NCBI GenBank assembly: GCA_964621165.1
Contig: CAZULC010000011.1
Coordinates: forward strand, 438-64,437
Length of the DNA: 64,000 nucleotides
Direction of reading: 5' to 3'
From: an uncultured Ruminococcus sp.
Lineage (GTDB): Bacteria > Bacillota > Clostridia > Oscillospirales > CAG-272
Part shown: one piece after another, positions 3,200 through 54,303 of the stretch
Layout: every line of letters starts with the position of its first letter
How positions within the stretch are numbered: the stretch's first letter is position 1
Made by a program: the position numbers and the translations under genes
The notes under the pieces: model-generated
Databases searched by the model: none
What the model saw: the letters and a program-made list of their open reading frames with translations, nothing else
Told to the model about the DNA's origin: nothing

Positions 3200-3288
3200 C
3201 TGCGGGAGCTATTGTTTAGAATCGTGTGATTGCTCTCCTGTTCAGCTGGAGAAATGCCATATTACCCGCGGGGGTGTCCCTGCCCACA
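3200..3288 (+). repeat. family-2 intergenic repeat, unit 1 of a tandem pair (~89 bp)
   Basis: Starts CTGCGGGAGCT, contains GTGATTGCT..CCTGTTCAGCTGGAGAAATGCC, and ends CCCGCGGGGGTGTCCC. It is directly followed by unit 2. Confidence 0.75.
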
Positions 3289-3375
3289 CTGCGGGAGCTA
3301 AAGAGGCGTCGTCTGTGATTGCTTCCCTGTTCAGCTGAAGAAGTGCCGAATATGCCCGTGGGGGCTTCCACTGTA
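3289..3375 (+). repeat. family-2 intergenic repeat, unit 2
   Basis: CTGCGGGAGCT...GTGATTGCTTCCCTGTTCAGCTGAAGAAGTGCCGAATATGCCCGTGGGGGCTTCC is collinear with unit 1 and with the inverted copy at 11795-11880. Confidence 0.75.
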
Positions 3376-3544
3376 TTCAGCACGATTGTTTAAGATGAAA
3401 AATATACTTAACAGAAATAATTTCGCTTATATTAATAATCAGCCATATTGAATTACATATTTTTGATTTTCCTAAAATGTCAAGCTAATAATTAGCTGAG
3501 ATAAAGAATTTTTGTAAATTAGCTATTATTGGTTACTTTTTTAG

Positions 3545-3573
3545 TTGACAAACTTCTGTCAATCTGTTATAAT
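3545..3573 (+). promoter_or_regulatory. sigma70 promoter TTGACA-17-TATAAT
   Basis: TTGACA at 3545-3550, 17-nt spacer, TATAAT at 3568-3573. It lies about 60 nt upstream of the lipoprotein ATG. Confidence 0.65.
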
Positions 3574-3634
3574 GATTGTGTCGATAATGAAGGTTGGTAT
3601 CGTCAATAAAATATTTTTAACGGAGGGTTTACAA

Positions 3635-5161
3635 ATGAAAAAGAAAATTTCGCTTCTTTTGGCTGTCTTGCAGATCACATTGATACTTGCGGCATGTTCA
3701 AACGGAGATGACAGCAATAGTGACTCATCAGCTTCCGGAGATGGAACAAATTCTGCATCCGGACAGACAGAAACGGAAGAGCAGACTGAAACAGAAGAGC
3801 CTGATCCTTTTGCGGATGTGGATTACGACGGCAGATCACTGAGGATCTACACCTCAATAGACACAAACGACGCTACAAACGGCGACAGATTCATTCGCGG
3901 CACCGGCGAAATCACCGGTGAGGCAGTCAATGACGCGGTGTATAACCGTAACCAGAAGGTGTCACAGCTTCTCGATATAAAGCTCGAATACGTTGAGGCA
4001 AACTACTATTACGCCGAAGTTGTACCCAACCTCAAAACCGAAATTCAGAGCGGCAGCAATGACTGGGATATTATCGCAAATGACCTGCGTGCTATCGCAA
4101 ACCTCTCCTCCGGCGGATATATCAAGAATATTTACTCCACCAATATACTCGATCTCGAAAAGTCCTACTGGTACAGCGAAGCTATGGACGATCTTCAGTT
4201 CATAGAGGGCGGTAAATTCTGTATTTTAGGCGACTACTTTACCGATATTATTGCATCCGCACACACCCTTTATGTAAATGAAACAAAAATGAATGCTCTC
4301 TATGGAGATACAGATTACGTAAACAAAATGGTTTTTGACGGCACATGGACTATTGATGAGTGGACTAAGATAGTTGATGCCGCATACGAAGACACAAACG
4401 GCAACGGTACAGCTGATTCTGATGACTTTTACGGCTATACGTCAATCGGCTACTGGGGTCCCGCTATTCCATCACTCATGGGTATGGACATTCAGTTTGT
4501 AACGAAGACAGACGATGGCGTTGAATATTCGTTCAACAACGAAAAATCCATAACCGTTCTTGAAAAGCTAAACGCACTGTACTTCTCTACCGGAACAAAC
4601 GCGGGACTGAGCGATGTTACAGATATGCGTACGAACTTCGCAAACGGCAGTACTCTGTTCATGGGATATAACCGTCTCGGCGATATGGAATACCTCCGCG
4701 ACGTCGAATTTGAAGTAGGCGTTGTTCCTTACCCAAAGTATGACACAGCTCAGGAAAACTATAATACATCCCTCCACGACACAACCGAAATCGGTGCTAT
4801 TCCCTCATTCGTCGTAGGAGACGACCTCAATTTCGTACTCACATGTCTCGAAGTTCTGTGCCGTGAAACTTCCAAGACCGTTATCCCAGAGTACTACGAA
4901 AACGGACTTAAAGTCAAGTATGCTGACGGTGAGGATGACGCCAAGATGGTTGACATAATCCATGATTCCATATGCTCACCGTTCGCTGTGGCATATGACG
5001 AACTTCTTGGCAACTTCCTCCTTAGAAACTGCCTCCTTGACAGACTTGCCGAAAATTCCACCGATTTCGCTTCCGCTTACAAGACCTACGAAAAATCTGG
5101 AAACAAGCTGCTAAGAAAGATAACTGACAACTTTAAGGAAGTTATCGAAAATGATCCGTAA
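3635..5161 (+). CDS. large extracellular solute-binding-type lipoprotein, paralog 1
   Basis: GGAGG RBS with ATG at 3635. Signal peptide with lipobox (LILAAC). A Ser/Thr/Glu-rich linker (QTETEEQTETEE) follows. The ~480-aa body resembles the large sugar-binding SBPs of Clostridia (NDAVYNRNQKV motif). No adjacent permease genes. Confidence 0.75.
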   Translation: MKKKISLLLAVLQITLILAACSNGDDSNSDSSASGDGTNSASGQTETEEQTETEEPDPFADVDYDGRSLRIYTSIDTNDATNGDRFIRGTGEITGEAVNDAVYNRNQKVSQLLDIKLEYVEANYYYAEVVPNLKTEIQSGSNDWDIIANDLRAIANLSSGGYIKNIYSTNILDLEKSYWYSEAMDDLQFIEGGKFCILGDYFTDIIASAHTLYVNETKMNALYGDTDYVNKMVFDGTWTIDEWTKIVDAAYEDTNGNGTADSDDFYGYTSIGYWGPAIPSLMGMDIQFVTKTDDGVEYSFNNEKSITVLEKLNALYFSTGTNAGLSDVTDMRTNFANGSTLFMGYNRLGDMEYLRDVEFEVGVVPYPKYDTAQENYNTSLHDTTEIGAIPSFVVGDDLNFVLTCLEVLCRETSKTVIPEYYENGLKVKYADGEDDAKMVDIIHDSICSPFAVAYDELLGNFLLRNCLLDRLAENSTDFASAYKTYEKSGNKLLRKITDNFKEVIENDP

Positions 5162-5452: not shown

Positions 5453-5535
5453 AACTATATCCTTAAATAATGTTGAATAACATATATTTAAGAAATATAT
5501 GTGTTTGCATTAACTATTTTACGGAGGAAATTATC

Positions 5536-7059
5536 ATGAAAAAGATGGTTGCATTGTTTCTTGTGACTGTTCAGTTGCTACTCGCACTTGCCGCCTGCTC
5601 AAATGGTGACAGCGATACAGAAACTACGTCTGTGACAAATGAAAATACGCCGTCCGATGAGCAGACAGAAACGGAAGAACAGACTGAAACAGAAGAGCCT
5701 GATCCTTTTGCGGATGTGGATTACGATGGCAGAGCACTGAGGATTTACACCTCAATCGACACAGACGACGCCACAAACGGGGATCGATTTATCCGGGGCT
5801 CAGGCGAAATCACCGGTGAGGCAGTCAATGACGCGGTGTATAACCGTAACCAGCAGGTGTCACAGCTTCTCAACATAAACTTAGAGTACACTGAAGCCAA
5901 CTATAATATGACCGTCGTTCTTGCCAATCTGAAAAATGAAATTCAGTCTGGAACAAACGATTGGGATGTCATAGCAAATGACATACGCACTATCGCAAAC
6001 CTCTCCTCCGGCGGATATATCAAGAATATTTACTCCACCAATATACTCGATCTCGAAAAGTCCTACTGGTACAGCGAAGCTATGGACGATCTTCAGTTCA
6101 TAGAGGGCGGTAAATTCTGTATTTTAGGCGACTACTTTACCGATATTATTGCATCCGCACACACCCTTTATGTAAATGAAACAAAAATGAATGCTCTCTA
6201 TGGAGATACAGATTACGTAAACAAAATGGTTTTTGACGGCACATGGACTATTGATGAGTGGACTAAGATAGTTGATGCCGCATACGAAGACACAAACGGC
6301 AACGGTACAGCTGATTCTGATGACTTTTACGGCTATACGTCAATCGGCTACTGGGGTCCCGCTATTCCATCACTCATGGGTATGGACATTCAGTTTGTAA
6401 CGAAGACAGACGATGGCGTTGAATATTCGTTCAACAACGAAAAATCCATAACCGTTCTTGAAAAGCTAAACGCACTGTACTTCTCTACCGGAACAAACGC
6501 GGGACTGAGCGATGTTACAGATATGCGTACGAACTTCGCAAACGGCAGTACTCTGTTCATGGGATATAACCGTCTCGGCGATATGGAATACCTCCGCGAC
6601 GTCGAATTTGAAGTAGGCGTTGTTCCTTACCCAAAGTATGACACAGCTCAGGAAAACTATAATACATCCCTCCACGACACAACCGAAATCGGTGCTATTC
6701 CCTCATTCGTCGTAGGAGACGACCTCAATTTCGTACTCACATGTCTCGAAGTTCTGTGCCGTGAAACTTCCAAGACCGTTATCCCAGAGTACTACGAAAA
6801 CGGACTTAAAGTCAAGTATGCTGACGGTGAGGATGACGCCAAGATGGTTGACATAATCCATGATTCCATATGCTCACCGTTCGCTGTGGCATATGACGAA
6901 CTTCTTGGCAACTTCCTCCTTAGAAACTGCCTCCTTGACAGACTTGCCGAAAATTCCACCGATTTCGCTTCCGCTTACAAGACCTACGAAAAATCTGGAA
7001 ACAAGCTGCTAAGAAAGATAACTGACAACTTTAAGGAAGTTATCGAAAATGATCCGTAA
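5536..7059 (+). CDS. large extracellular solute-binding-type lipoprotein, paralog 2
   Basis: GGAGG RBS with ATG at 5536 and lipobox LALAAC. The N-terminal third has diverged from paralog 1. The protein is identical from IANLSSGGYIKNIY to the C-terminus. Confidence 0.75.
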   Translation: MKKMVALFLVTVQLLLALAACSNGDSDTETTSVTNENTPSDEQTETEEQTETEEPDPFADVDYDGRALRIYTSIDTDDATNGDRFIRGSGEITGEAVNDAVYNRNQQVSQLLNINLEYTEANYNMTVVLANLKNEIQSGTNDWDVIANDIRTIANLSSGGYIKNIYSTNILDLEKSYWYSEAMDDLQFIEGGKFCILGDYFTDIIASAHTLYVNETKMNALYGDTDYVNKMVFDGTWTIDEWTKIVDAAYEDTNGNGTADSDDFYGYTSIGYWGPAIPSLMGMDIQFVTKTDDGVEYSFNNEKSITVLEKLNALYFSTGTNAGLSDVTDMRTNFANGSTLFMGYNRLGDMEYLRDVEFEVGVVPYPKYDTAQENYNTSLHDTTEIGAIPSFVVGDDLNFVLTCLEVLCRETSKTVIPEYYENGLKVKYADGEDDAKMVDIIHDSICSPFAVAYDELLGNFLLRNCLLDRLAENSTDFASAYKTYEKSGNKLLRKITDNFKEVIENDP

Positions 7060-7248
7060 GCCTTATATAAAGTCAAAATAAATACAATAATCCCCGGGAA
7101 TGAGAATATACTCAGACTCGGGGGATATTTTTTATAATTAAGTTAAATTAAAGCTGAGAGCGGATAATTTTACCGCTGGTGGTTTTCGGTAAATCCGACT
7201 TGAATTCCACGATTCTCGGGTATTTGTAAGGAGCGGTGTTCTTCTTGA
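5990..7248. repeat. second copy of the 1,259-bp identical tract
   Basis: See 4092-5350. This copy is contiguous with the intact synthetase gene. Confidence 0.85.
7090..7134 (+). terminator. rho-independent terminator candidate (copy of 5192-5236)
   Basis: Same hairpin plus T-run. It sits between the convergent lipoprotein and synthetase genes. Confidence 0.55.
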
Positions 7249-9439
7249 CGTAGTTCTGGATTTCCTTTTTAAGTTCGTCCGACGGAACAGTTCCCTTCGT
7301 CAGCACGATTGAGGCTTTCACTATCTGTCCTCTAACCTCGTCAGGAACCGCGGAAACGCCGCACTCGAGGACGTAGGGAAGTTCCATGATGACGTTTTCT
7401 ATCTCGAAAGGACCGATTCTGTAGCCGGAGGACTTGATTACGTCGTCTATGCGGCTGACGTACCATAAAAATCCATCTTCGTCCCGCCATGCCAAATCTC
7501 CCGTGTGGTAGTAGCCGTCGTGCCACGATTCCCGGGTCTTTTCCTCGTCGCGGTAGTAACCCATGAACAGTCCGCAGGGTGCGCCACCCGACACATTCAC
7601 GCAGATTTCTCCTGTCTCACCGTTTGCGGTCTCGTTCCCGTCGGAGTCGAGAAGACGCACGTCGTAAATCGGACATGGTTTGCCCATCGAGCCTAACTTG
7701 TGGGGTGCGCCGACTAAATTGCCAATCATGCAGGTTGTCTCCGACTGACCGAAGCCCTCCATGATTTCAAGCCCCGTCGCTTCCTTGAACTGCTTGTAAA
7801 CCTCCGGGTTCAGAGCTTCTCCGGCAGTTGTGGCATGCTTCAGGGAAGAGAAGTCGTACTTTGTGAGGTCTTCCTTTATCAGCATGCGGTACATTGTGGG
7901 AGGCGCACAGAAGGTGGTGATTTTGTATTTCTTGAACATGGGCAGAATCTTTGCCGCATCGAACCTGTCAAAGTCATAGACAAACGTTGCAGCCTCGCAC
8001 ATCCACTGACCGTACAGCTTGCCCCACATGGCCTTAGCCCAGCCTGTGTCGGATATGGTGAAGTGAAGTCCGGTATCGGAGGAGTCAACGCAGTGCCAAT
8101 ATTTCGCCGTGTGGAAGTGGCCGAGAGCATACTTGTAGTTGTGTGCCGCGATTTTCGGGTAGCCCGTTGTTCCGCTGGTGAAGAACATCATCATTGGCTC
8201 GTTGCCGCAGGGGGAGTCGTCAGTCCGTTCAAACTTGCCGCTGAACAGGTTGTATTCCTCGTTGAAGTTCCTCCAGCCCTCACGCTCGCCGTTTACGATG
8301 ATTTTCACCTTCAAATCCGGACATCCGGCGGCGGCAATGTCAACCTGATGCGCCGTGTCACCGTCGGCTGTGCAGAGGATTGCGGAAACTCCTGCGGCTT
8401 TGAAGCGGTAGTCGAAGTCGTGGGACACAAGCTGAGCCGTCGCGGGAATGGCTATAGCCCCCAATTTATTTAAGCCGAGTATGGCGAACCAGAACTGATA
8501 ATGCCGCTTGAGCACCAGCATTACTCTATCCCCACGCTTGATTCCGAGGGACTTGAAGTAGTTTGCGCACTGGGATGAAGCACGGGAAATGTCTTTGAAT
8601 GTGAACCGCTTTTCCGTCACGCCGTCGTTTGCTACGTAAACCATAGCGGGCTTGTCAGGCTTTTCCCGGCCTAGAGCGTCCACTATGTCAAAGGCGAAGT
8701 TGAATTTGTCCGCGTTTTTGAAGCTGATTTTCACGGGAGTGCCGTTTTCGTTCTTTTCCACGTCTACGAACCGACGGTAAATCCGCTCTTCCTTCGAGGA
8801 CTCAGCCGCCTTTCCGCTGAACTGGATTCCGTCCGCTCTCTTGCTCTTGTCCTCTCCTGCGGGATTGAGAACGATTGCGTAGAATAAGCACTCTCCGCCT
8901 ACCGCTGTCATTCCGTGAGGTGTGGAGCTGTCGTAGTAGATGCTGTCCCCTTCGTGAAGGATTTCCCGATGCCCGCCGACGATAACCTTGAGAGTACCTT
9001 TCACTACGATGTCGCATTCCTGACCCTCGTGAGTGGTAAGTTCCACGTCGTCACGCTCTCTCTCCGGCGAATATTCAGCCGTGACAAGAAGAGGTTCCGC
9101 TATACGGTTCCTGAAAGACGAAGCTAGATTGTAGTATGTCAGCCCGTGAGCCTGCTCGATTTTCTGCCCTTCTCCGGCTCTCGTGACCGTCAGCTTGCCC
9201 AGCTTAGGGCTGTTTCCTTCGATAATGTCGGTTACGTCCACGTTGAAGGCAAGGGCGCAGCGGTAGATGAAGGCGAAGGTCAGGCTTTCCTCACCCCGTT
9301 CGCACCGCAGATATTCTTCAACTGTAGTTCCGGTTTTCTTTGCCATTTCCGCAGGGGTGAAGCCCTCGATTTCCCTCAGCTCCGCCACACGGCTGGCAAC
9401 CTCGTGCATTTTAAATTCAAGTCCAGTTATGTTTGACAT
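7148..9439 (-). CDS. HTH(XRE)-cupin domain fused to an AMP-forming acyl-CoA synthetase
   Basis: 763 aa. The N-terminal ~190 aa carry an HTH (FTPAEMAKKTGTTVEEYLRCERGE) plus cupin (HEGQECDIVVKGTLKV...GDSIYYDSSTPHGM). The rest carries AMP-binding motifs (FFTSGTTGYPK, YHTGD, SGKIIR). Confidence 0.85.
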   Translation of the reverse strand: MSNITGLEFKMHEVASRVAELREIEGFTPAEMAKKTGTTVEEYLRCERGEESLTFAFIYRCALAFNVDVTDIIEGNSPKLGKLTVTRAGEGQKIEQAHGLTYYNLASSFRNRIAEPLLVTAEYSPERERDDVELTTHEGQECDIVVKGTLKVIVGGHREILHEGDSIYYDSSTPHGMTAVGGECLFYAIVLNPAGEDKSKRADGIQFSGKAAESSKEERIYRRFVDVEKNENGTPVKISFKNADKFNFAFDIVDALGREKPDKPAMVYVANDGVTEKRFTFKDISRASSQCANYFKSLGIKRGDRVMLVLKRHYQFWFAILGLNKLGAIAIPATAQLVSHDFDYRFKAAGVSAILCTADGDTAHQVDIAAAGCPDLKVKIIVNGEREGWRNFNEEYNLFSGKFERTDDSPCGNEPMMMFFTSGTTGYPKIAAHNYKYALGHFHTAKYWHCVDSSDTGLHFTISDTGWAKAMWGKLYGQWMCEAATFVYDFDRFDAAKILPMFKKYKITTFCAPPTMYRMLIKEDLTKYDFSSLKHATTAGEALNPEVYKQFKEATGLEIMEGFGQSETTCMIGNLVGAPHKLGSMGKPCPIYDVRLLDSDGNETANGETGEICVNVSGGAPCGLFMGYYRDEEKTRESWHDGYYHTGDLAWRDEDGFLWYVSRIDDVIKSSGYRIGPFEIENVIMELPYVLECGVSAVPDEVRGQIVKASIVLTKGTVPSDELKKEIQNYVKKNTAPYKYPRIVEFKSDLPKTTSGKIIRSQL

Positions 9440-9456
9440 GATTGTTCCTTTTTATT

Positions 9457-9975
9457 TTAAATTTTACTCGTGATCCATTTGTGCGCCGCCTCAGCTGCTT
9501 CCGTCGGGATAAGGTGGGTCGTGTCAAGCAGCGTGATCTCTGGTGAGGTTTTGTCGTGGTTTTCCTGTAACCAGCGGTTGAAGTCAACGGAGCTTTTTAT
9601 CCAGCCCTCGTCAGTCACGCCACGCCCGACTTTCATCCGGCGTATCAGCTCGTCTTCGTCACAGACCGCCGCAAGATAGTGTATATTAGTGAACAGTTCT
9701 CTTTCCGGCTGGGATTCAAATTGCTCGGGGACCCCGCATCCGCATAACACCACCGGCTTGCTGATTTGGGAAATGCTGGCTGAAAGTCTCATCCATGTGC
9801 GGCGGAAGTCCCGGTAGCCGTCCTCTGTGGTGTCGTAGATTTTGCACCAGAGCAGGTCCCCCTCCATGACGACGTAGTCCCGCTCGTTTTGGAACAGGAT
9901 TTCGCATAAGGTTGTTTTTCCCACGCAGGAGGCTCCCGTGACGACAAAAAGCGGCTGTTTTATTGTAGGGGTCAT
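9457..9975 (-). CDS. P-loop NTPase / putative small-molecule kinase
   Basis: 172 aa with Walker A GASCVGKTT near the N-terminus. There is a 17-nt gap to the downstream synthetase gene, so they are probably co-transcribed. Confidence 0.65.
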   Translation of the reverse strand: MTPTIKQPLFVVTGASCVGKTTLCEILFQNERDYVVMEGDLLWCKIYDTTEDGYRDFRRTWMRLSASISQISKPVVLCGCGVPEQFESQPERELFTNIHYLAAVCDEDELIRRMKVGRGVTDEGWIKSSVDFNRWLQENHDKTSPEITLLDTTHLIPTEAAEAAHKWITSKI

Positions 9976-10015
9976 GTGGTATTCCTCATTTGAGCCAAAA
10001 AACGCTATTAGGTTT

Positions 10016-10044
10016 ATTTTAGACTAAAATCAACCTTTTGTCAA
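10016..10044 (-). promoter_or_regulatory. sigma70 promoter TTGACA-17-TAAAAT for the P-loop/synthetase pair
   Basis: On the minus strand the site reads TTGACAaaaggttgattttagtcTAAAAT, about 45 nt upstream of the ATG at 9975. Confidence 0.55.
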
Positions 10045-10179
10045 GGGATTTGCTTAAATTTATGCCGGAGAATGAATAATTTTGCGTTTTTCTGCCGCGC
10101 GGGAACAAAATCATATCGGCAGTACAAAAAAACTGCGGATTTTTTTTCGCGGATTTTCAGAAAAATTTCGCCTGAGGTA

Positions 10180-10208
10180 TTGACAAACCCGTCCGGCTGT
10201 GATATAAT
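10180..10208 (+). promoter_or_regulatory. sigma70 promoter TTGACA-17-TATAAT for tRNA-Thr
   Basis: TTGACA at 10180-10185 and TATAAT at 10203-10208. Confidence 0.65.
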
Positions 10209-10292
10209 AATACCCGCTGAGACAAGCTCACATTGAGGCAGGCTCTAAGGGACAAGCTTCCGCTGAGACAAACATCTTGCAAAATTGAATAT

Positions 10293-10365
10293 GCTAATAT
10301 GGCTCAGTTGGTAGAGCACATCCTTGGTAAGGATGAGGTCCCCGGTTCGAATCCGGGTATTAGCT
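10293..10365 (+). tRNA. tRNA-Thr (anticodon GGT)
   Basis: Cloverleaf folded by hand. Acceptor GCTAATA/TATTAGC, D arm GCTC..GAGC, anticodon stem CATCC/GGATG with loop TTGGTAA, T arm CCCGG-TTCGAAT-CCGGG. Confidence 0.9.
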
Positions 10366-10467
10366 GATTAAGGCGGCATTCGTGTAAAAACGGGTGCCAT
10401 TTTTCATTGTGTGAACATTGCCGTCACCGCCGGGTATCTATGGCATATTATATTACGGGAGAGAAGA

Positions 10468-10500
10468 CCAAAACAAAAGCAGAGCGCAAATACGCCCTGC
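10468..10500 (-). terminator. rho-independent terminator of pfkA
   Basis: On the minus strand, a GCAGGGCG-tattt-GCGCTCTGC hairpin is followed by TTTTGTTTT. Confidence 0.55.
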
Positions 10501-10518
10501 TTGGATATTATTTTTGGA

Positions 10519-11619
10519 TCAGTGGCAGAGGGAGTCGATTATCGCGTAGTTGCGGCGGAAGGCTTCCTTCTTGACCTCGATGATTCTCTCCATTTCCGCA
10601 AGCTGCTCAGCCGTGTAAGCGTCGGTCATTCCCGGTTTGAGCGTGCCTTTGTACATGCGGTCGAGAACCTGGGACCAGCCGATGTCAACCGTTGTGATGA
10701 CGCCCGCGTTCTCCACTACTACAAGGTTGGAGTTGCCCGCTAAAAGCTCCTCAACGGCTCTGACGCCCATCTTTGTGGCGAGAACTCTGTCGTCAAGTGT
10801 GGGGGAACCGCCGCGGACCAGATGAGCGAGACGGCAGAACTTTGACTCAACCCACAGTCTGTCGTTGCCCTCAGCTTCGGCAAGAGCCTTTGTCTCGTCG
10901 TTGATTCTCTTGGTCAGTCTCTCGCCCAGACCCGGGTATGCTTCCGATACGATTACAAGGAAGGAACGCTTGCCGTCGCGGCGGAGGTTGATTATCTTGT
11001 TCACGCACGCGTCCTCGTCGAAGGGAACCTCACGGATTGCGCAGGCTACAGCGGCGGAGGCAATGGCGGAGTTGAGAGCGATGTCGCCGGCGTTTCTGCC
11101 CATAACCTCGATTACGTTGCATCTCGCGTGGGATTCGCAGGTGTCACGGAGTCTGTCCACGGCTTCGACTACGGTCTGCATTGCGGTGTGGAAGCCGATT
11201 GTGTTGTCGGAGGCTGTGATGTCGTTGTCGATTGTGCCGGGTACGCCGATTGTGGGAATTCCTCTCACGGAAAGGTCAGTGGCGCCTCTGAATGTTCCGT
11301 CGCCGCCGATTGCAACAACACCGTCGATTTCATGCTTTTTCAGAACGGAGATAGCCTTCTGCATGCCTTCCTCGGTTTTGAATTCGTCGCATCTGTCGGA
11401 GAACAGGAACGTGCCGGAGAGCTGGATTTTTGAAGAGACTGTGCGGTTGGTCATCTCAATCATTTCGTCATGAATCATACCGCGATAGCCGCCGAGAATT
11501 CCCATGACCTTAACGCCGTGAGAGTAAGCGGTTCTCGTGATTGCTCTGACTGCCGCATTCATGCCGGGAGCGTCGCCGCCGGAGGTCAGGACACCGATTT
11601 TTCTGAATTTTTTTTCCAT
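10519..11619 (-). CDS. pfkA: ATP-dependent 6-phosphofructokinase
   Basis: 366 aa. The N-terminus IGVLTSGGDAPGMNAAVRA and the motifs GGDGT and PGTIDND are diagnostic PFK-A features. Confidence 0.93.
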   Translation of the reverse strand: MEKKFRKIGVLTSGGDAPGMNAAVRAITRTAYSHGVKVMGILGGYRGMIHDEMIEMTNRTVSSKIQLSGTFLFSDRCDEFKTEEGMQKAISVLKKHEIDGVVAIGGDGTFRGATDLSVRGIPTIGVPGTIDNDITASDNTIGFHTAMQTVVEAVDRLRDTCESHARCNVIEVMGRNAGDIALNSAIASAAVACAIREVPFDEDACVNKIINLRRDGKRSFLVIVSEAYPGLGERLTKRINDETKALAEAEGNDRLWVESKFCRLAHLVRGGSPTLDDRVLATKMGVRAVEELLAGNSNLVVVENAGVITTVDIGWSQVLDRMYKGTLKPGMTDAYTAEQLAEMERIIEVKKEAFRRNYAIIDSLCH

Positions 11620-11794
11620 GACTGTATTATATCCTTTCAGGTTTACTTTTTGTAAAACTTGTAATACGCTCAGCTTCCGACGCTGGTATACATCGGGCTG
11701 ACATTTTTCTACATTTTCTTATTATAATACTCCACTCGCGGAAAATCAAGAGGGAAGAGTAATTCTTTTAGATTTTATAACAAAATTTTTACAT

Positions 11795-11880
11795 TAGCGG
11801 GGAAGCCCCAACGGGCAAAACGACATTTTTTCAGCTAAAACTGTTAGAACTCTCACGGTTCTATAGTTAAGCTCCCGCAG
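11795..11880 (-). repeat. family-2 intergenic repeat, inverted copy
   Basis: The reverse complement reads CTGCGGGAGCTtaac...GTGAGAgttctaacagTTttAGCTGAAAAAATGTCGTTTTGCCCGTTGGGGCTTCCCC, collinear with the units at 3200-3375. It lies upstream of pfkA, in sense orientation relative to pfkA. Confidence 0.7.
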
Positions 11881-12059
11881 ATCTGTACTACTGATGGCAA
11901 TGTTTATAAAAAGTTCAGTATAACGTCATAGACTCTTCTATATTTTGATGTAAAATTATAATATACTATTATTCTTTGCCGTCATATTAAGTTTATGCAT
12001 GGAAAAGACGGCGGTAAAAATAGTTTTTGTTGATAATTCTATGTAGTGCGAGGTAGGCT

Positions 12060-13115
12060 ATGACTGTTTCCTTCGGGGATTTTATCGGGATTATATGCGG
12101 CGGCTCGCCATTTGTCATTGTAACAGTTCTGCTGACTCTCGGCGTGATTCTTGTCAACGGCTGGACTGACGCGCCCAACGCCATAGCGACCTGCGTCTCC
12201 ACCCGGTGCATAAAGCCGAAGTCAGCGATTGCAATGGCGGCTGTGTGCAACTTCCTTGGGGTGTTCGTCATGACAGCGCTGTCCTCACGGGTTGCGTCGA
12301 CTATATATAATATGGTAGACTTCGGCGGCGACTCCCACTCTGCGACCTATGCCCTCTGCGCCGCACTGTCCGCTATTGTGCTGTGGTCGGTGGCGGCATG
12401 GAAGTTCGGGATTCCCACGTCGGAAAGCCATGCTCTGATTGCTGGTTTGACCGGAGCGGCGATTGCGATTCACGGGAACCTCGGCGGAGTCAACGGGAGC
12501 GAATGGGTCAAGGTCGTATACGGCTTGGTTCTGTCAACTCTTCTCGGCTTCGGCATGGGCTTTGTCACGGTTCGGCTTACGGAACTCCTGTGCCGGAATA
12601 TGGACAGACGTAAAACCACGCGTTTTTTCCGCTTTGCTCAGTTGGGAGGCGGGGCTTTGATGGCGTTCATGCATGGGGCGCAGGACGGACAGAAGTTCAT
12701 GGGCGTGTTTCTTTTGGGACTGTTCATCTCCGGCGGAAACATGGGAGTGACTGAGTTTGCAATTCCACTGTGGCTCATGCTGCTGTGTTCGGTGGTGATG
12801 GGGCTTGGAACCTCGATCGGCGGGTACAGAATCATAAAATCCGTGGGCATGGACATGGTGAAGCTGCAGGTTTATCAGGGCTTTTCAGCCGACCTTGCCG
12901 CCGCACTGTGCCTTCTTCTCGCCTCACTAACGGGAATTCCGGTGTCCACCACCCACACGAAAACAACGGCCATAATGGGCGTGGGAGCGTCAAAGCGTCT
13001 GTCGGCAGTGAACTGGAAAATCGTCGGCGACATGGTTCTCGCGTGGGTCCTGACCTTCCCCGGCTGCGGAATTTTAGGCTTCCTTATGGTGAAGCTGTTC
13101 TCGCTTTTCGCGTGA
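12060..13115 (+). CDS. pit: inorganic phosphate transporter, PiT family
   Basis: 351-aa polytopic membrane protein. It carries the PiT signature repeats (GWTDAPNAIAT; GIPVSTTHT). Confidence 0.88.
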   Translation: MTVSFGDFIGIICGGSPFVIVTVLLTLGVILVNGWTDAPNAIATCVSTRCIKPKSAIAMAAVCNFLGVFVMTALSSRVASTIYNMVDFGGDSHSATYALCAALSAIVLWSVAAWKFGIPTSESHALIAGLTGAAIAIHGNLGGVNGSEWVKVVYGLVLSTLLGFGMGFVTVRLTELLCRNMDRRKTTRFFRFAQLGGGALMAFMHGAQDGQKFMGVFLLGLFISGGNMGVTEFAIPLWLMLLCSVVMGLGTSIGGYRIIKSVGMDMVKLQVYQGFSADLAAALCLLLASLTGIPVSTTHTKTTAIMGVGASKRLSAVNWKIVGDMVLAWVLTFPGCGILGFLMVKLFSLFA

Positions 13116-19828: not shown

Positions 19829-20326
19829 ATGGATTCAGAATATCTTGAGTTAATATCGCTGAATATCTGGCACATCATCGCCACCATAGCCAATCTCCTG
19901 ATTCTCATGCTCATTTTAAAGAAATTCCTGTTCAAGCCGGTTCAGAAAATCATGGCTGAGCGGCAGAGTCAGGTGGACGAGCTTTACGCCGGCGCTGAGG
20001 AAGCCAAAACTCAGGCAGAGGCTGACCGTAAGCTTTACAGTGAAAAACTGGAAGGCGCACATGCCGAGGCGGATTCGATTATAAAGAACGCCACACGCCG
20101 TGCGGACAAGCTGGGTGAGGAGATCATCGAGGAAGCCAAAGCCAAAGCCGCCGACACTGCACTTAGAGCCGAGGCTGACATCGAGCGAGAGAAAAAGAAG
20201 GCTATGAGCGAGCTGAAAAACGAAATCTCGGAAATATCCGTGCAGATTGCCGAAAGCGTGGTTTCGAGAGAAATCAAGGAAGGCGACCACAAGGAACTCA
20301 TCGACTCCTTTATCGACAAATTATAA
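19829..20326 (+). CDS. atpF: F0 ATP synthase subunit b
   Basis: 165 aa with an N-terminal TM helix and a long charged helix, in the expected operon position. Confidence 0.9.
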   Translation: MDSEYLELISLNIWHIIATIANLLILMLILKKFLFKPVQKIMAERQSQVDELYAGAEEAKTQAEADRKLYSEKLEGAHAEADSIIKNATRRADKLGEEIIEEAKAKAADTALRAEADIEREKKKAMSELKNEISEISVQIAESVVSREIKEGDHKELIDSFIDKL

Positions 20327-20465
20327 CGCGTGAAATATACAGAAAAACCTGATTTTAGTCAGCTGTTTTCACGCTAAAGAATTCCTTGAAAAACGGAACC
20401 AACCATTTTTCATCGTCTTTTAGACGACCGGAATTCTTTCAGAGATATATTTAAGGGGTATATGT
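20327..20465 (+). repeat. family-1 structured intergenic repeat, copy A (atpF|atpH spacer)
   Basis: It begins immediately after the atpF TAA. Stem GCGTGAAA(20328-35)/TTTCACGC(20367-74). Stem AAAGAATTCC/GGAATTCTTT (about 20376-20439) encloses TGAAAAACGG-aaccaa-CCATTTTTCA and the hairpin CGTCT-ttt-AGACG. It is homologous to the reverse complements of 26652-26911 and 43611-43836. Confidence 0.85.
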
Positions 20466-20990
20466 ATGAACGATATAGCAATGGAATATTCGGCGGGACT
20501 GTTTGAGCTGGCCTCAGACGAAGGCTGTGAGGATGTGCTTCTCGGGGAAGTCAAGGCTTTGAAACCCCTTTTCACCCGGGAGTATCTGCATACCCTCATC
20601 AATCCCTCCATTCCGAAGTCAGCGAGAGAAGGAATGATAGACGAAGCCTTCGGCGGAAGAGTCAACCGTAATCTCGTGTCATTCATGAAGCTCATGGTGG
20701 ACCGGGGAATCGGGGATTTGATTCCGTCCTGCTTCGCTGAATACGAAAATCTGTACAGAGAAAAATTCAATATAACCGTAGTCACAGCCGAAAGCGCGGT
20801 TGAACTGACGGAAGAGCAGAAGTCGAAGCTCACCGCTAAGCTGGAGGAAAAAACCGGCGGACGGGTGGAGATGGTCTATCGTGTAAATCCGTCCCTTCTC
20901 GGTGGCATGAAGCTCGACATCGGCAACCGCAGAATCGACGACAGCGTAAAGTCAAAAATTAATGAAATCGCGGCCCGGCTTAAGGCGTAA
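20466..20990 (+). CDS. atpH: F1 ATP synthase subunit delta
   Basis: 174 aa, OSCP-like, in the expected operon position. Confidence 0.88.
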   Translation: MNDIAMEYSAGLFELASDEGCEDVLLGEVKALKPLFTREYLHTLINPSIPKSAREGMIDEAFGGRVNRNLVSFMKLMVDRGIGDLIPSCFAEYENLYREKFNITVVTAESAVELTEEQKSKLTAKLEEKTGGRVEMVYRVNPSLLGGMKLDIGNRRIDDSVKSKINEIAARLKA

Positions 20991-21046
20991 ATTTCGACGT
21001 GACAGGCGGCCCGGAAACGTATCACTCGTGAAAGGAATAATATAAA

Positions 21047-23525: not shown

Positions 23526-23713
23526 AAATAATATTAAGCAGATGTGAGTTAACAGGAATGCAAACAATCTGATTTACTAAATCAAGGTGTTCCATACGGC
23601 GTGGGTGAGTAGGGTAGTGGTCCCTAAACACCACCTCCACCCTTCATGATGTCAAGGATAACAATATGGCAAGAGGAAAACTTCTTCATCGACAGGCACA
23701 AATGATAAATTGA

Positions 23714-25252
<1,539 letters not shown>

Positions 25253-26651: not shown

Positions 26652-26911
26652 GAGGAAGCTCCTTTCAATTTACAAAAATTGCCAATGCCTTTTAATCAAG
26701 CAAAATAATAGTTAATACTTCGCTTAATGTCCTAAGCTAAACAAGCGAACAGATACAAACCACAGCTTGTCCTCGCTCCACATCTTAGATTAAACGTGAG
26801 AAGAATTCCGGTTTGCGAAGCAAATTGAAAATGGTTGGTTCCGTTTTCAAAGGAATTCTTCAGTGTGAAACCAGCTTATATGAAGTCCGCACTCGCTGAA
26901 TGTTTCACACG
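26652..26911 (-). repeat. family-1 structured intergenic repeat, copy B (efp|downstream gene spacer), long form
   Basis: Read on the minus strand, it starts right after the efp TAA. Stem GTGTGAAAC/GTTTCACAC. Core 26800-26861 has stem GAAGAATTCC/GGAATTCTTC, hairpin TTTGC-GAA-GCAAA, and hairpin TTGAAAATGG-ttggtt-CCGTTTTCAA. The conserved block CTCGCTCCAC lies at 26772-81, followed by the extra hairpin ACAAGC(26741-46)/GCTTGT(26765-70). Confidence 0.85.
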
Positions 26912-40953: not shown

Positions 40954-40969
40954 TTAAACCTTCCTCCTA

Positions 40970-41797
40970 TTATACAGATTTTTTGTGCATTCTCAGAAGG
41001 TTTGCGAGGGTGGACTTGAGCTTGTCCCGGGTCACAATGGCATCGACAAAGCCGTGTTCGAGTAAAAATTCCGCCGTCTGGAAGTTCTGAGGAAGCTCGG
41101 TTTTTGTGGTCTGCTCCACGACGCGCCGTCCCGCGAATCCGATCAGGGCTTTCGGCTCGGCTAAAATAACGTCTCCCTGCATTGCGAAGCTGGCTGTAAC
41201 GCCTCCTGTTGTTGGGTCGGTGACTACGGTGATGTAGGGGATTGAGGCTTCACTGAGTCTGCTGACCGCGCCGCTGACCTTCGCCATCTGCATAAGGGAA
41301 ATGATGCCCTCCTGCATTCTCGCACCGCCCGAGGCTGTGAATCCCACCACCGGCAGCTTTTCCTTCAGCGCTCTCTCAAAGATAAGCGTGATTTTCTCGC
41401 CCACAACCGACCCCATGCTCGCCATGATGAAGCGGGGGTCCATGACGAAGATTGCACAGTCCTCGCCGCCGATTTTGCCAGTTCCGCAGATTACGGCTTC
41501 CTTTTCCCCCGTGGCAGATGTAGCCTTTTGCAGCTTTTCCGCGTATCCCGGGAAGTGCATGAAGTCGCGGCTCTGGTAGTCGGGGTACAGCTCCTTGAAG
41601 GAACCGGCGTCGCATACCATATCAATTCTCGCTCTCGCGCTGATTCTGATGTACTTCCCGCACTTGGGGCAGACGTAATACGACCGCTTGGCCTCGTCCT
41701 CGGGAATTTCGTTGCCGCAGGAGCATTTTATGACAACGGACGGCTTTGTGGTGATGACCGACTTTATAGCGTCTTTTATGCTGTTTACTATATCCAT
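40970..41797 (-). CDS. accD: acetyl-CoA carboxylase carboxyltransferase subunit beta
   Basis: 275 aa with an N-terminal Zn ribbon (CSCGN...CPKCGKY) and the carboxyltransferase core GGARMQEG. Confidence 0.93.
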   Translation of the reverse strand: MDIVNSIKDAIKSVITTKPSVVIKCSCGNEIPEDEAKRSYYVCPKCGKYIRISARARIDMVCDAGSFKELYPDYQSRDFMHFPGYAEKLQKATSATGEKEAVICGTGKIGGEDCAIFVMDPRFIMASMGSVVGEKITLIFERALKEKLPVVGFTASGGARMQEGIISLMQMAKVSGAVSRLSEASIPYITVVTDPTTGGVTASFAMQGDVILAEPKALIGFAGRRVVEQTTKTELPQNFQTAEFLLEHGFVDAIVTRDKLKSTLANLLRMHKKSV

Positions 41798-43610: not shown

Positions 43611-43836
43611 TTATATGGTGTCCTTTACTTTTTCTGAGTTAAACTATTGCCAAAGCCAGCGGAAGAACTCCACTGTATAATTAAATCTGCACGAGTTCTC
43701 GCTCCACGTCTTAAGCAAAATGTTGGAAGAATTCCGGTAGGCTGAAAGCCGATGAAAAATGGTGGGTCCCGTTTTTCAAGGAATTCTCTGGCACGAAATC
43801 AGCTGAATAAAATGAAGTATTTCTAACCATTTCGTG
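43611..43836 (-). repeat. family-1 structured intergenic repeat, copy C (fabG|fabF spacer), long form
   Basis: Read on the minus strand, it starts at the fabG TAG. Stem (G)CACGAAAT/ATTTCGTG(C). Core 43726-43788 has stem GAAGAATTCC/GGAATTCT, hairpin GGCT-GAA-AGCC, and hairpin TGAAAAATGG-tgggtc-CCGTTTTTCA. CTCGCTCCAC lies at 43698-43707, with the extra hairpin AGAACTC/GAGTTCT. Confidence 0.85.
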
Positions 43837-54023: not shown

Positions 54024-54303
54024 AATAACCTCCATTTGCCGTATAGCGGCGTATAATCAAAGGGAATTCTTCTGCGTGAAATAATTTTTACCGCACGTTT
54101 GGACATACGATATATTTCACACTGAACTTCGATAAATCTGATTTGTATTTCACTAAAGATATTATACAAAGCATCACGGGATTTGTCAACAGCTTTGGTG
54201 AAACTTGACGGAAAAACTTTGATTTGATATTGCCCATGCGGTATGTTATAATGTAGGAAAGTCATGGAAAATCAATTTTTTATATTTTTAAGGAGTCCCC
54301 ATC

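Follow-up and report, generated by a model that had tools for sequence, protein, structure and literature searches.

Results

A repeated module in the spacers of core operons

The DNA analyzed here is a 64,000-nucleotide stretch from an uncultured Ruminococcus sp. (contig CAZULC010000011.1, positions 438 to 64,437; hereafter the window), and its subject is a structured repeat that lies between co-directional genes. One copy, designated A, separates atpF, which encodes the b subunit of ATP synthase (19829–20326, + strand; recognized through homologues with PF00430), from atpH, which encodes the delta/OSCP subunit (20466–20990, + strand; PF00213 on an identical protein). Copy B lies between efp and an unannotated gene of 155 amino acids, and copy C between fabG and fabF. 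Together with the copies described below, these form a structured, multi-copy, strain-polymorphic insertion family within transcription units that matches no described family.

The original prediction had proposed that the atpF–atpH spacer, the spacer between efp and the next gene, and the fabG–fabF spacer have a module in common. This is confirmed: a repeat search links the three sites, and a 32-nt core, AGAATTCCTTGAAAAACGGAACCAACCATTTT, occurs three times in the window at up to two mismatches, where shuffled sequences lead one to expect none. The junctions with the upstream stop codons are also as claimed (TAA followed by CGCGTGAAA in A, TAA followed by CGTGTGAAAC in B, and TAG followed by CACGAAAT in C), and so is the shared orientation, with copy A on the + strand among + strand genes and copies B and C on the - strand among - strand genes. 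The predicted coordinates, in contrast, spanned the whole spacers, whereas the common core measures ca. 116 nt. As placed by fold and by a covariance model (CM R1, described below), the cores run from 20327 to 20442 in A (+ strand; 129 bits, E 5.5e-26, also supported by alignments), from 26911 to 26798 in B (- strand; 122 bits), directly after the efp TAA, and from 43837 to 43721 in C (- strand; 117 bits), where the first hairpin starts at the G of the fabG TAG stop.

Independent folds of A, B, and C gave the same architecture, in which a long hairpin (P1) is followed by a three-way junction formed by a stem (P2) that encloses two further hairpins (P2a and P2b). In copy A the fold places P1 at 20328–20374, P2 at 20376–20385 paired with 20430–20439, P2a at 20387–20412, and P2b at 20413–20427, all on the + strand. 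The P2 stem is AGAAUUCC/GGAAUUCU and P2a is UGAAAAA-CGGAACCAACC-UUUUUCA, while the sequence of P2b is variable. Fold z-scores were -4.6, -4.3, and -2.1 for A, B, and C, respectively. Units range from 116 to 220 nt, have a G+C content of 0.35–0.42, and contain no open reading frame (ORF).

Downstream of the core the copies carry one of three alternative 3′ tails. Copy A has a 13-nt tail, seen at 20443–20454 (+ strand) as CAGAGATAT then ATT, plus a second TAA. In B and C the 13-nt tail is joined to a further module, TAAGAYGTGGAGCGAG..., identified by repeat search and alignment. The 3′ extension of copy B (26692–26797, - strand) thus consists of the 13-nt tail and then TAAGATGTGGAGCGAGG... up to ...GATTAA, and that of copy C (43644–43720, - strand), which begins TAAGACGTGGAGCGAGAAC... 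and forms a hairpin, is homologous to it by direct repeat and alignment, although its right boundary is uncertain. The third tail is a terminal hairpin, P4 (GCCGYTATRCGGC), found in the copies D, E, and F introduced below. Every copy has P1 as its left end, and only D, E, and F are closed on the right by P4.

Additional copies in the window and in related strains

A hidden Markov model (HMM) and CM R1 were built from the copies and used to search both strands of the 64-kb window and of 448 kb of loci. The window holds three full copies and one partial copy, and relatives contribute three more and a remnant. The partial window copy, E (54122–54034, - strand; nhmmer E 0.001; CM R1 17.8 bits, E 0.06), had been overlooked in the original prediction. 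It comprises P1, the 5′ half of P2, and P4, here GCCGCTATACGGC, a motif also present in D and F, and it ends exactly 5′ of the host GGAGG. Upstream of it, at 54160–54190 on the - strand, lies a consensus sigma-70 promoter (TTGACA-17-TATAAT) for a DHDPS-family gene, which is also present in the relative L050. Because of this promoter, copy E is placed inside the 5′ untranslated region (5′UTR) of that gene rather than behind a stop codon.

Several of the relative loci belong to one syntenic contig, JBANSE010071237.1 (segments L002, L009, L049, and L050), whose AtpF is 95% identical to that of the window. The relative's contig was reached via cluster members of FabF and of a methyltransferase, after a homologue search with the G5/3D protein, whose orthologue there is only 68% identical, had not led to it; an exact match to the acyl carrier protein was sought and not found. 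Segment L002 carries B′ (16574–16439), the orthologue of copy B, which starts 2–3 nt past the TAA, has GAAUCCC/GGGAUUC as its P2, and holds an additional hairpin within P2a. Copy D, found only in strain L011, lies between atpH and atpA (CM R1 135 bits); it starts ca. 108 nt past the stop codon and ends with P4 and GGAGG. Upstream of it, at 2043–2149 of L011, we observed an unrelated segment of ca. 70 nt, ggaaactggactgatatgatttcctgcaaagcatgaaaataaaaagcgcggaaatatcatgc..., by which the spacer also differs from that of L002 and which has its own hairpin. Copy F lies between accD and accA in L049, with P4 adjoining the host Shine-Dalgarno sequence (SD; CM R1 123 bits). At this locus, AccD ends in KRTV* in L049 (12671–12682), where P1 contributes the TGA from its 5′ strand, and in KKSV* with a TAA in the window (40967–40985); length is equal and the codons are similar, as if the end of the element had taken the place of look-alike host sequence. 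Finally, the fabG–fabF spacer of L049 contains C′, a degenerate remnant consisting of P1 only, with the distal flank TGGCAAAAGTTAAACTC kept. The claim that every copy has a fixed junction with a stop codon does not survive these additions, as D, E, and B′ deviate from it.

The stems covary across copies

In P1, compensatory changes had been predicted at four alignment columns, and exactly four doubly changed pairs are present (columns 5–51, 6–50, 7–49, and 12–44). Across the six full copies, 95.8% of stem cells are paired, compared with 38–50% when partners are slid, and 13 of the 36 pairs have changed on both sides, compared with 0–6 when slid; neither value was reached in any of 500 shuffles. 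Between A and B alone, eight pairs differ on both sides, seven of which still pair, and one-sided differences are absent. Pairwise identity among copies is 58–86%, and where stems differ, both partners have in the great majority of cases changed in a compensatory way.

Sense and antisense strands fold alike; for copy A, the minimum free energies are -37.7 and -42.4 kcal/mol, respectively. In our reading, G-U wobbles and A-C mismatches are about equally few among the mispaired cells. Because the antisense fold is equally stable and the two kinds of mispair are similarly frequent, RNA and single-stranded DNA, and sense and antisense strand, are not distinguished; the covariation is equally compatible with each. 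A scan of the sense strand of copy A found no promoter-like or terminator-like sites, and the element is accordingly predicted to leave operon transcription unaffected.

Copies are gained and lost between closely related strains

Copy A is absent from L002, where the atpF–atpH spacer is only 12 nt long (TAAGGAGGTCGAACTATG; the same junction sequence occurs in others), and the site is also empty in six further contigs (L003, L004, L011, L012, L013, and L015). The flanks of the empty junctions in L012 (TAAGGAGTACGG) and L011 (TGATGAGGTATATGTATG) match those of the window, which defines 20327–20454 as a 128-nt insertion lying between the TAA and the SD of the host; a TAA is found on either side. 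The junction comparison also shows that neither the C-terminus of AtpF nor its TAA stop was altered. The Logan short-read assembly of the same strain breaks within the copy A core, as expected of a multi-copy repeat in a short-read assembly.

The other sites behave similarly. The accD–accA junction occupied by copy F in L049 is empty in the window (40954–40969, - strand; 16-nt spacer, gtaTAAtaggaggaaggtttaaATG), and the atpH–atpA junction occupied by copy D in L011 is empty both in the window (20991–21046, + strand) and in L002. The copy E site is empty in L050, where ...CATAC is followed by GGAGGTTTTATATG, compared with ...ACGGCAAAT followed by GGAGGTTATTATG in the window. Copy B is absent from L037, L039, and L043, in which the downstream gene is 68–70% identical and the efp spacers measure 47–78 nt; relative to these distant relatives, core and extension together amount to an insertion of ca. 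220 nt, after whose ...GATTAA the host sequence picks up as GGCATT.... No copy was found in relatives at or below 82% AtpF identity (ca. 120 kb searched).

Thus, copies are gained and lost between strains whose flanking proteins are ca. 95% identical. The claim that the repeat is not a selfish mobile element fails on this evidence, since A, D, E, and F are strain-polymorphic and B is absent in distant relatives. The accompanying proposal of a transcribed intercistronic RNA element stands in part: the family is structured, lies inside transcription units, and is sense in all copies, but the exclusion of mobility does not hold.

The same evidence bears on the alternative that the repeat is a host-beneficial, cis-acting intercistronic RNA, namely a processing, stability, or translation device whose spread between junctions is secondary. 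P1 might, for example, block 3′ exonucleases on behalf of the upstream cistron, the three-way junction or P4 might shield the 5′ end of the downstream cistron or present its SD, or the fold might prevent Rho loading. Such a device would account for an element that is always sense and within transcription units, that in D, E, and F puts a hairpin directly before the SD, that shows very strong covariation, and whose P2a loops (CGGRACCMACCA) are conserved while the stems vary; operon repeats such as BIME, ERIC, and Correia are known to alter mRNA fate (PMC3049150). We nonetheless find it doubtful. The host genes (atp, efp, fab, acc, and dapA-like) have no function in common, and the downstream genes (atpH, atpA, fabF, accA, the DHDPS-family gene, and the unannotated 155-amino acid gene) belong to no single family or pathway. 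Presence varies between near-identical strains, and accD–accA and atpF–atpH work with 12–16-nt spacers in sister strains; the element is wholly absent from the relatives at or below 82% AtpF identity. Strains tolerate remnants that have lost internal parts (E, and C′ in L049), and with both strands folding equally well, nothing marks an RNA strand.

Insertions share orientation, and four of six end at the Shine-Dalgarno sequence

All six independent insertions (A–F) are sense with respect to the host genes (two-sided binomial p 0.03), and neither CM R1 nor the HMM detected an antisense copy on either strand of the window and the 448 kb of loci. In four of the six (A, D, E, and F), the downstream SD follows immediately on the 3′ end of the element, with the right flanks GG(A/G)GG in A, GGAGG in D and E, and AGGAGG in F; that of B is AAGGC. 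On the antisense strand, the sequence just before the element is CCTCC, CCCC, or CCTCCT in these four copies and GCCTT in B. The stop codon and the SD are 0–2 nt apart in A and F, so that one junction fits both descriptions. Copy C has TAG at its left and TAA or TAG at its right, and E and F show no target duplication relative to their empty sites. Terminal inverted repeats were sought by local alignment of the first 30 nt with the reverse complement of the last 30 nt, and none were found: A, B, D, E, and F scored 5–6, compared with shuffle means of 4.9–5.5.

These features raise the possibility that the element is a palindrome-associated derivative moved by an HUH (Y1) transposase that acts on single strands, as in the IS200/IS605 or RAYT type; the active strand of the element would be the antisense strand, and insertion would occur 3′ of CCTCC, the SD complement. 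In the IS200/IS605 family, the left end lands 3′ of a tetra- or pentanucleotide particular to the element, and the lagging-strand template is preferred (PMC5027513). The lack of terminal inverted repeats, the lack of target duplication in E and F, the hairpins at both extremities of D, E, and F (P1 and P4), and the (A)GG(A/G)GG sequence in four of the five informative right flanks would all fit, and an enzyme that reads structure would need stems that covary. Other details make this proposal improbable. P4 starts only 3–4 nt from the junction, too close for an IS608-type guide sequence to fit in between, P4 is missing from copy A, and tails vary among copies. In genes transcribed in the direction of replication, CCTCC would lie on the leading-strand template, contrary to the lagging-strand preference of the family. 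Copies occupy both strands of the window, in which GC skew shows no clear switch and so gives no replication direction. Lastly, no TnpA or RAYT gene was noticed in the window or in ca. 260 kb of related loci, albeit without a systematic search.

The family matches no entry in the databases searched

As in the original prediction, no match to a known motif was found: at the gathering threshold, Rfam 15 reported only two tRNAs in the window, neither at the element, and permissive scans of copies A, B, and F gave only chance matches (E at least 0.8). Copy A had no BLAST match in plasmid and phage collections. A specific pattern, CCTTNNAAAACGGNACCNACCATTTT, had no matches in GTDB genomes, JGI metagenomes, or IMG/VR, and a general pattern, TTTCNNNCNNNAGAATNCN{36,66}ACCNGNATTCTT, had 21, 17, and 2, respectively. 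When these were judged by CM, and the metagenome loci also by eye, none was a family member; the best reached 13 bits (E 4.7), and the matches are explained by Vibrio genes and the like. Searches with the P4 hairpin and with the B/C tail motif yielded no further copies. The family therefore appears to be confined to a narrow clade, which is itself represented by only a few NCBI metagenome assemblies and a single Logan run. The organism belongs to an uncultured lineage that is Clostridia/Oscillospiraceae-like.

Several specific identities were rejected. An integron attC site was dropped in view of the core-operon hosts and the lack of an R′′/R′ consensus. A self-cleaving ribozyme or a group I intron or IStron is discounted by the lack of an Rfam match and by the small size of the element, and tRNA-like punctuation by the lack of a match between the element and the Rfam tRNA model.

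Other features at the loci

A second insertion was observed in the atp operon. The atpG–atpD spacer of the window (23526–23851) measures ca. 326 nt, compared with 57 nt in the 95% identical relative L002, and the extra ca. 295 nt (about 23542–23836) are bounded by 15-nt imperfect terminal inverted repeats, ATGTGAGTTAACAGG and CCTGCTAACTCATAT. Judged by these sequence features, it looks like a second, unrelated element of the classical MITE (miniature inverted-repeat transposable element) type. It had no match in Rfam or in the plasmid collection and was not recognized by CM R1.

Near the start of the window, a 34-nt direct repeat (3225–3258 and 3314–3347; 88% identical, 89 nt apart) lies upstream of an ORF at 3545–5161. 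This ORF and that at 5470–7059 are apparently tandem paralogues, with a 300-nt repeat (3764–4063 and 5662–5961) of 84% identity. A weak CM R1 match at 3274–3385 (14 bits, E 0.39) is probably due to chance. In L039, the efp locus is followed at 5915–12613 by a block encoding a serine recombinase, a Mob_Pre relaxase, and DUF5906, which looks like an integrated mobilizable element unrelated to the repeat family.

Discussion

We favor the interpretation, which we regard as probable, that these sequences are a lineage-restricted family of small, non-coding, non-autonomous mobile repeats that depend on their structure. Under this interpretation, copies would be made by a mechanism that reads a folded single-stranded nucleic acid rather than terminal inverted repeats, and they would be placed by an asymmetric preference for sites of the form TA(A/G)-(A)GG(A)GG, with the hyphen at the point of insertion. 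Such a motif is polar and stands before genes and would therefore suffice to generate the orientation lock; where only 0–2 nt separate stop codon and SD within an operon, it would also lead to abutment to the stop codon. A stop/SD insertion preference combined with very short spacers is thus the better explanation of the junctions that had suggested a fixed attachment to stop codons. Once inserted, the element would be passively co-transcribed, and thanks to its tight fold the added untranslated RNA may bring about neither polarity nor decay; this would account for the conservation of stems in place.

Several observations weigh against this interpretation. First, the orientation lock and the GGAGG flank rest on six independent insertions only, and with spacers as short as those of A and F, an insertion that is tolerated must touch both signals. 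Second, the junctions are irregular: the left flanks vary (TAA, TAA, TAG, TAG, TCA, and AAC), copy B lies ca. 40 nt from the SD, D carries a GGAGG that has no counterpart in the empty site of L002, and A and B, unlike E and F, have TAA on both sides, so that no single junction rule covers all copies. Third, the recently gained copies A, D, and F are only 75–86% identical, which is unusual for a burst from a single master copy. Finally, between B and B′, which are orthologous, 6 of 72 stem columns and 12 of 42 unpaired columns differ (Fisher p 0.007), with two compensatory pairs. This pattern in the two sequences suggests selection at a fixed locus, which is not predicted for a purely selfish element and is one of the points that favor a host-beneficial RNA. 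With stems conserved even between orthologous copies, a role at the RNA level is possible.

The irregular ends also bear on the alternative of spread without a dedicated enzyme, by microhomology-assisted recombination or template switching, in which a donor with flanking TAA and GGAGG(...ATG) would be pasted at the same generic signals elsewhere. The right-hand ends are indeed variable and mosaic, D carries a GGAGGCTAT that is missing from the empty site, the last accD codons at copy F (AGA ACG GTG TGA) resemble a homeologous replacement of AAA TCT GTA TAA, and both the paired TAA of A and B and the divergence of the gained copies would be natural outcomes. Still, microhomologies of 3–5 nt are very short for repeated, precise events, and neither the clean covariation of stems across copies nor the constant left end at P1 would be explained. 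We judge this route quite improbable. A bolder version of the mobile-repeat interpretation, which we think unlikely, is that an undescribed kind of mobile element seeks out, in sense orientation, the point where a stop codon (or 5′UTR) gives way to the SD; it would have neither terminal inverted repeats nor a fixed target duplication, and its covarying fold of hairpin plus three-way junction would be both recognized by a partner enzyme and selected in the operon mRNA.

Among known repeats, the closest precedent in behavior is bcr1 of the Bacillus cereus group, also Firmicutes, which is described as a dispersed, mobile, transcribed, non-coding element of ca. 155 bp whose fold is kept by compensatory changes, and whose distribution is likewise not conserved between related strains (PMC3184786). 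bcr1 is always flanked by 5-bp direct repeats, and no sense lock and no stop or SD preference is reported in the text consulted (PMC3184786). Compared by description, the present element differs in combining a hairpin with a three-way junction and variable tails. 

Small, non-autonomous operon repeats are also represented by ERIC (IRU) and Correia (NEMIS), which are co-transcribed, fold as RNA, and alter mRNA fate, ERIC through orientation-dependent RNase E cleavage and Correia through RNase III cleavage (PMC3049150). Insertion polymorphism between strains is described for Correia (PMC3184786). The effect of ERIC on upstream mRNA depends on the direction of insertion (PMC3049150), whereas the present family is sense in all six cases. 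ERIC and Correia have terminal inverted repeats and TA duplications; the present family lacks such repeats. More generally, of the traits of a classical MITE, the family is small, non-coding, multi-copy, and polymorphic in presence, but without terminal inverted repeats.

Structure rather than terminal repeats also defines the REP, BIME, and REPIN sequences associated with RAYT and the palindromes derived from IS200/IS605, which are intergenic as well. REP was first described as an intercistronic operon element (Higgins 1982, as cited in PMC3184786), and REP and IS200/IS605-type elements move in single-stranded form through HUH enzymes, which recognize hairpins (PMC5027513). However, REP sequences are G+C-rich palindromes of 20–40 nt with a GTAG or CGTC tag and hundreds of copies, unlike the present units of 116–220 nt with 38–42% G+C and a three-way junction, and the IS200/IS605 target rule is followed only tentatively.

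BOX of Streptococcus pneumoniae offers another parallel, as a modular Firmicutes repeat with extensive secondary structure that is co-transcribed with its neighbors (PMC3049150). BOX is nevertheless built of boxA, boxB, and boxC modules with ends like terminal inverted repeats, pneumococcal repeats are enriched between convergent genes, and no match to BOX at the Rfam threshold was found here. MIRU elements occupy intercistronic operon spacers in one direction relative to transcription, as tandem units of 46–101 bp whose small ORFs overlap with the stop and start codons on either side. The present copies are single, contain no ORF, and have a complex fold, and a MIRU-type unit was rejected on the first two of these grounds. 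In sum, the family differs from bcr1, ERIC, Correia, BIME, and BOX in being sense-locked, SD-adjacent, built around a three-way junction, and free of inverted repeats; it is not a categorically new system, and it is not a member of any named family.

The family has practical consequences as well, because it breaks short-read assemblies at operon junctions and could pass for a riboswitch-like motif in comparative RNA screens. Sister strains that differ by the presence or absence of 120–220 nt of structured RNA between cistrons are natural experiments on translational coupling, polarity, and mRNA decay in Clostridia. Were the preference for these junctions and the sense lock to hold genome-wide, the family would represent a mobile element that targets the translation punctuation of operons, and it would show how repeats colonize essential, tightly packed operons such as atp, fab, and acc without breaking them.

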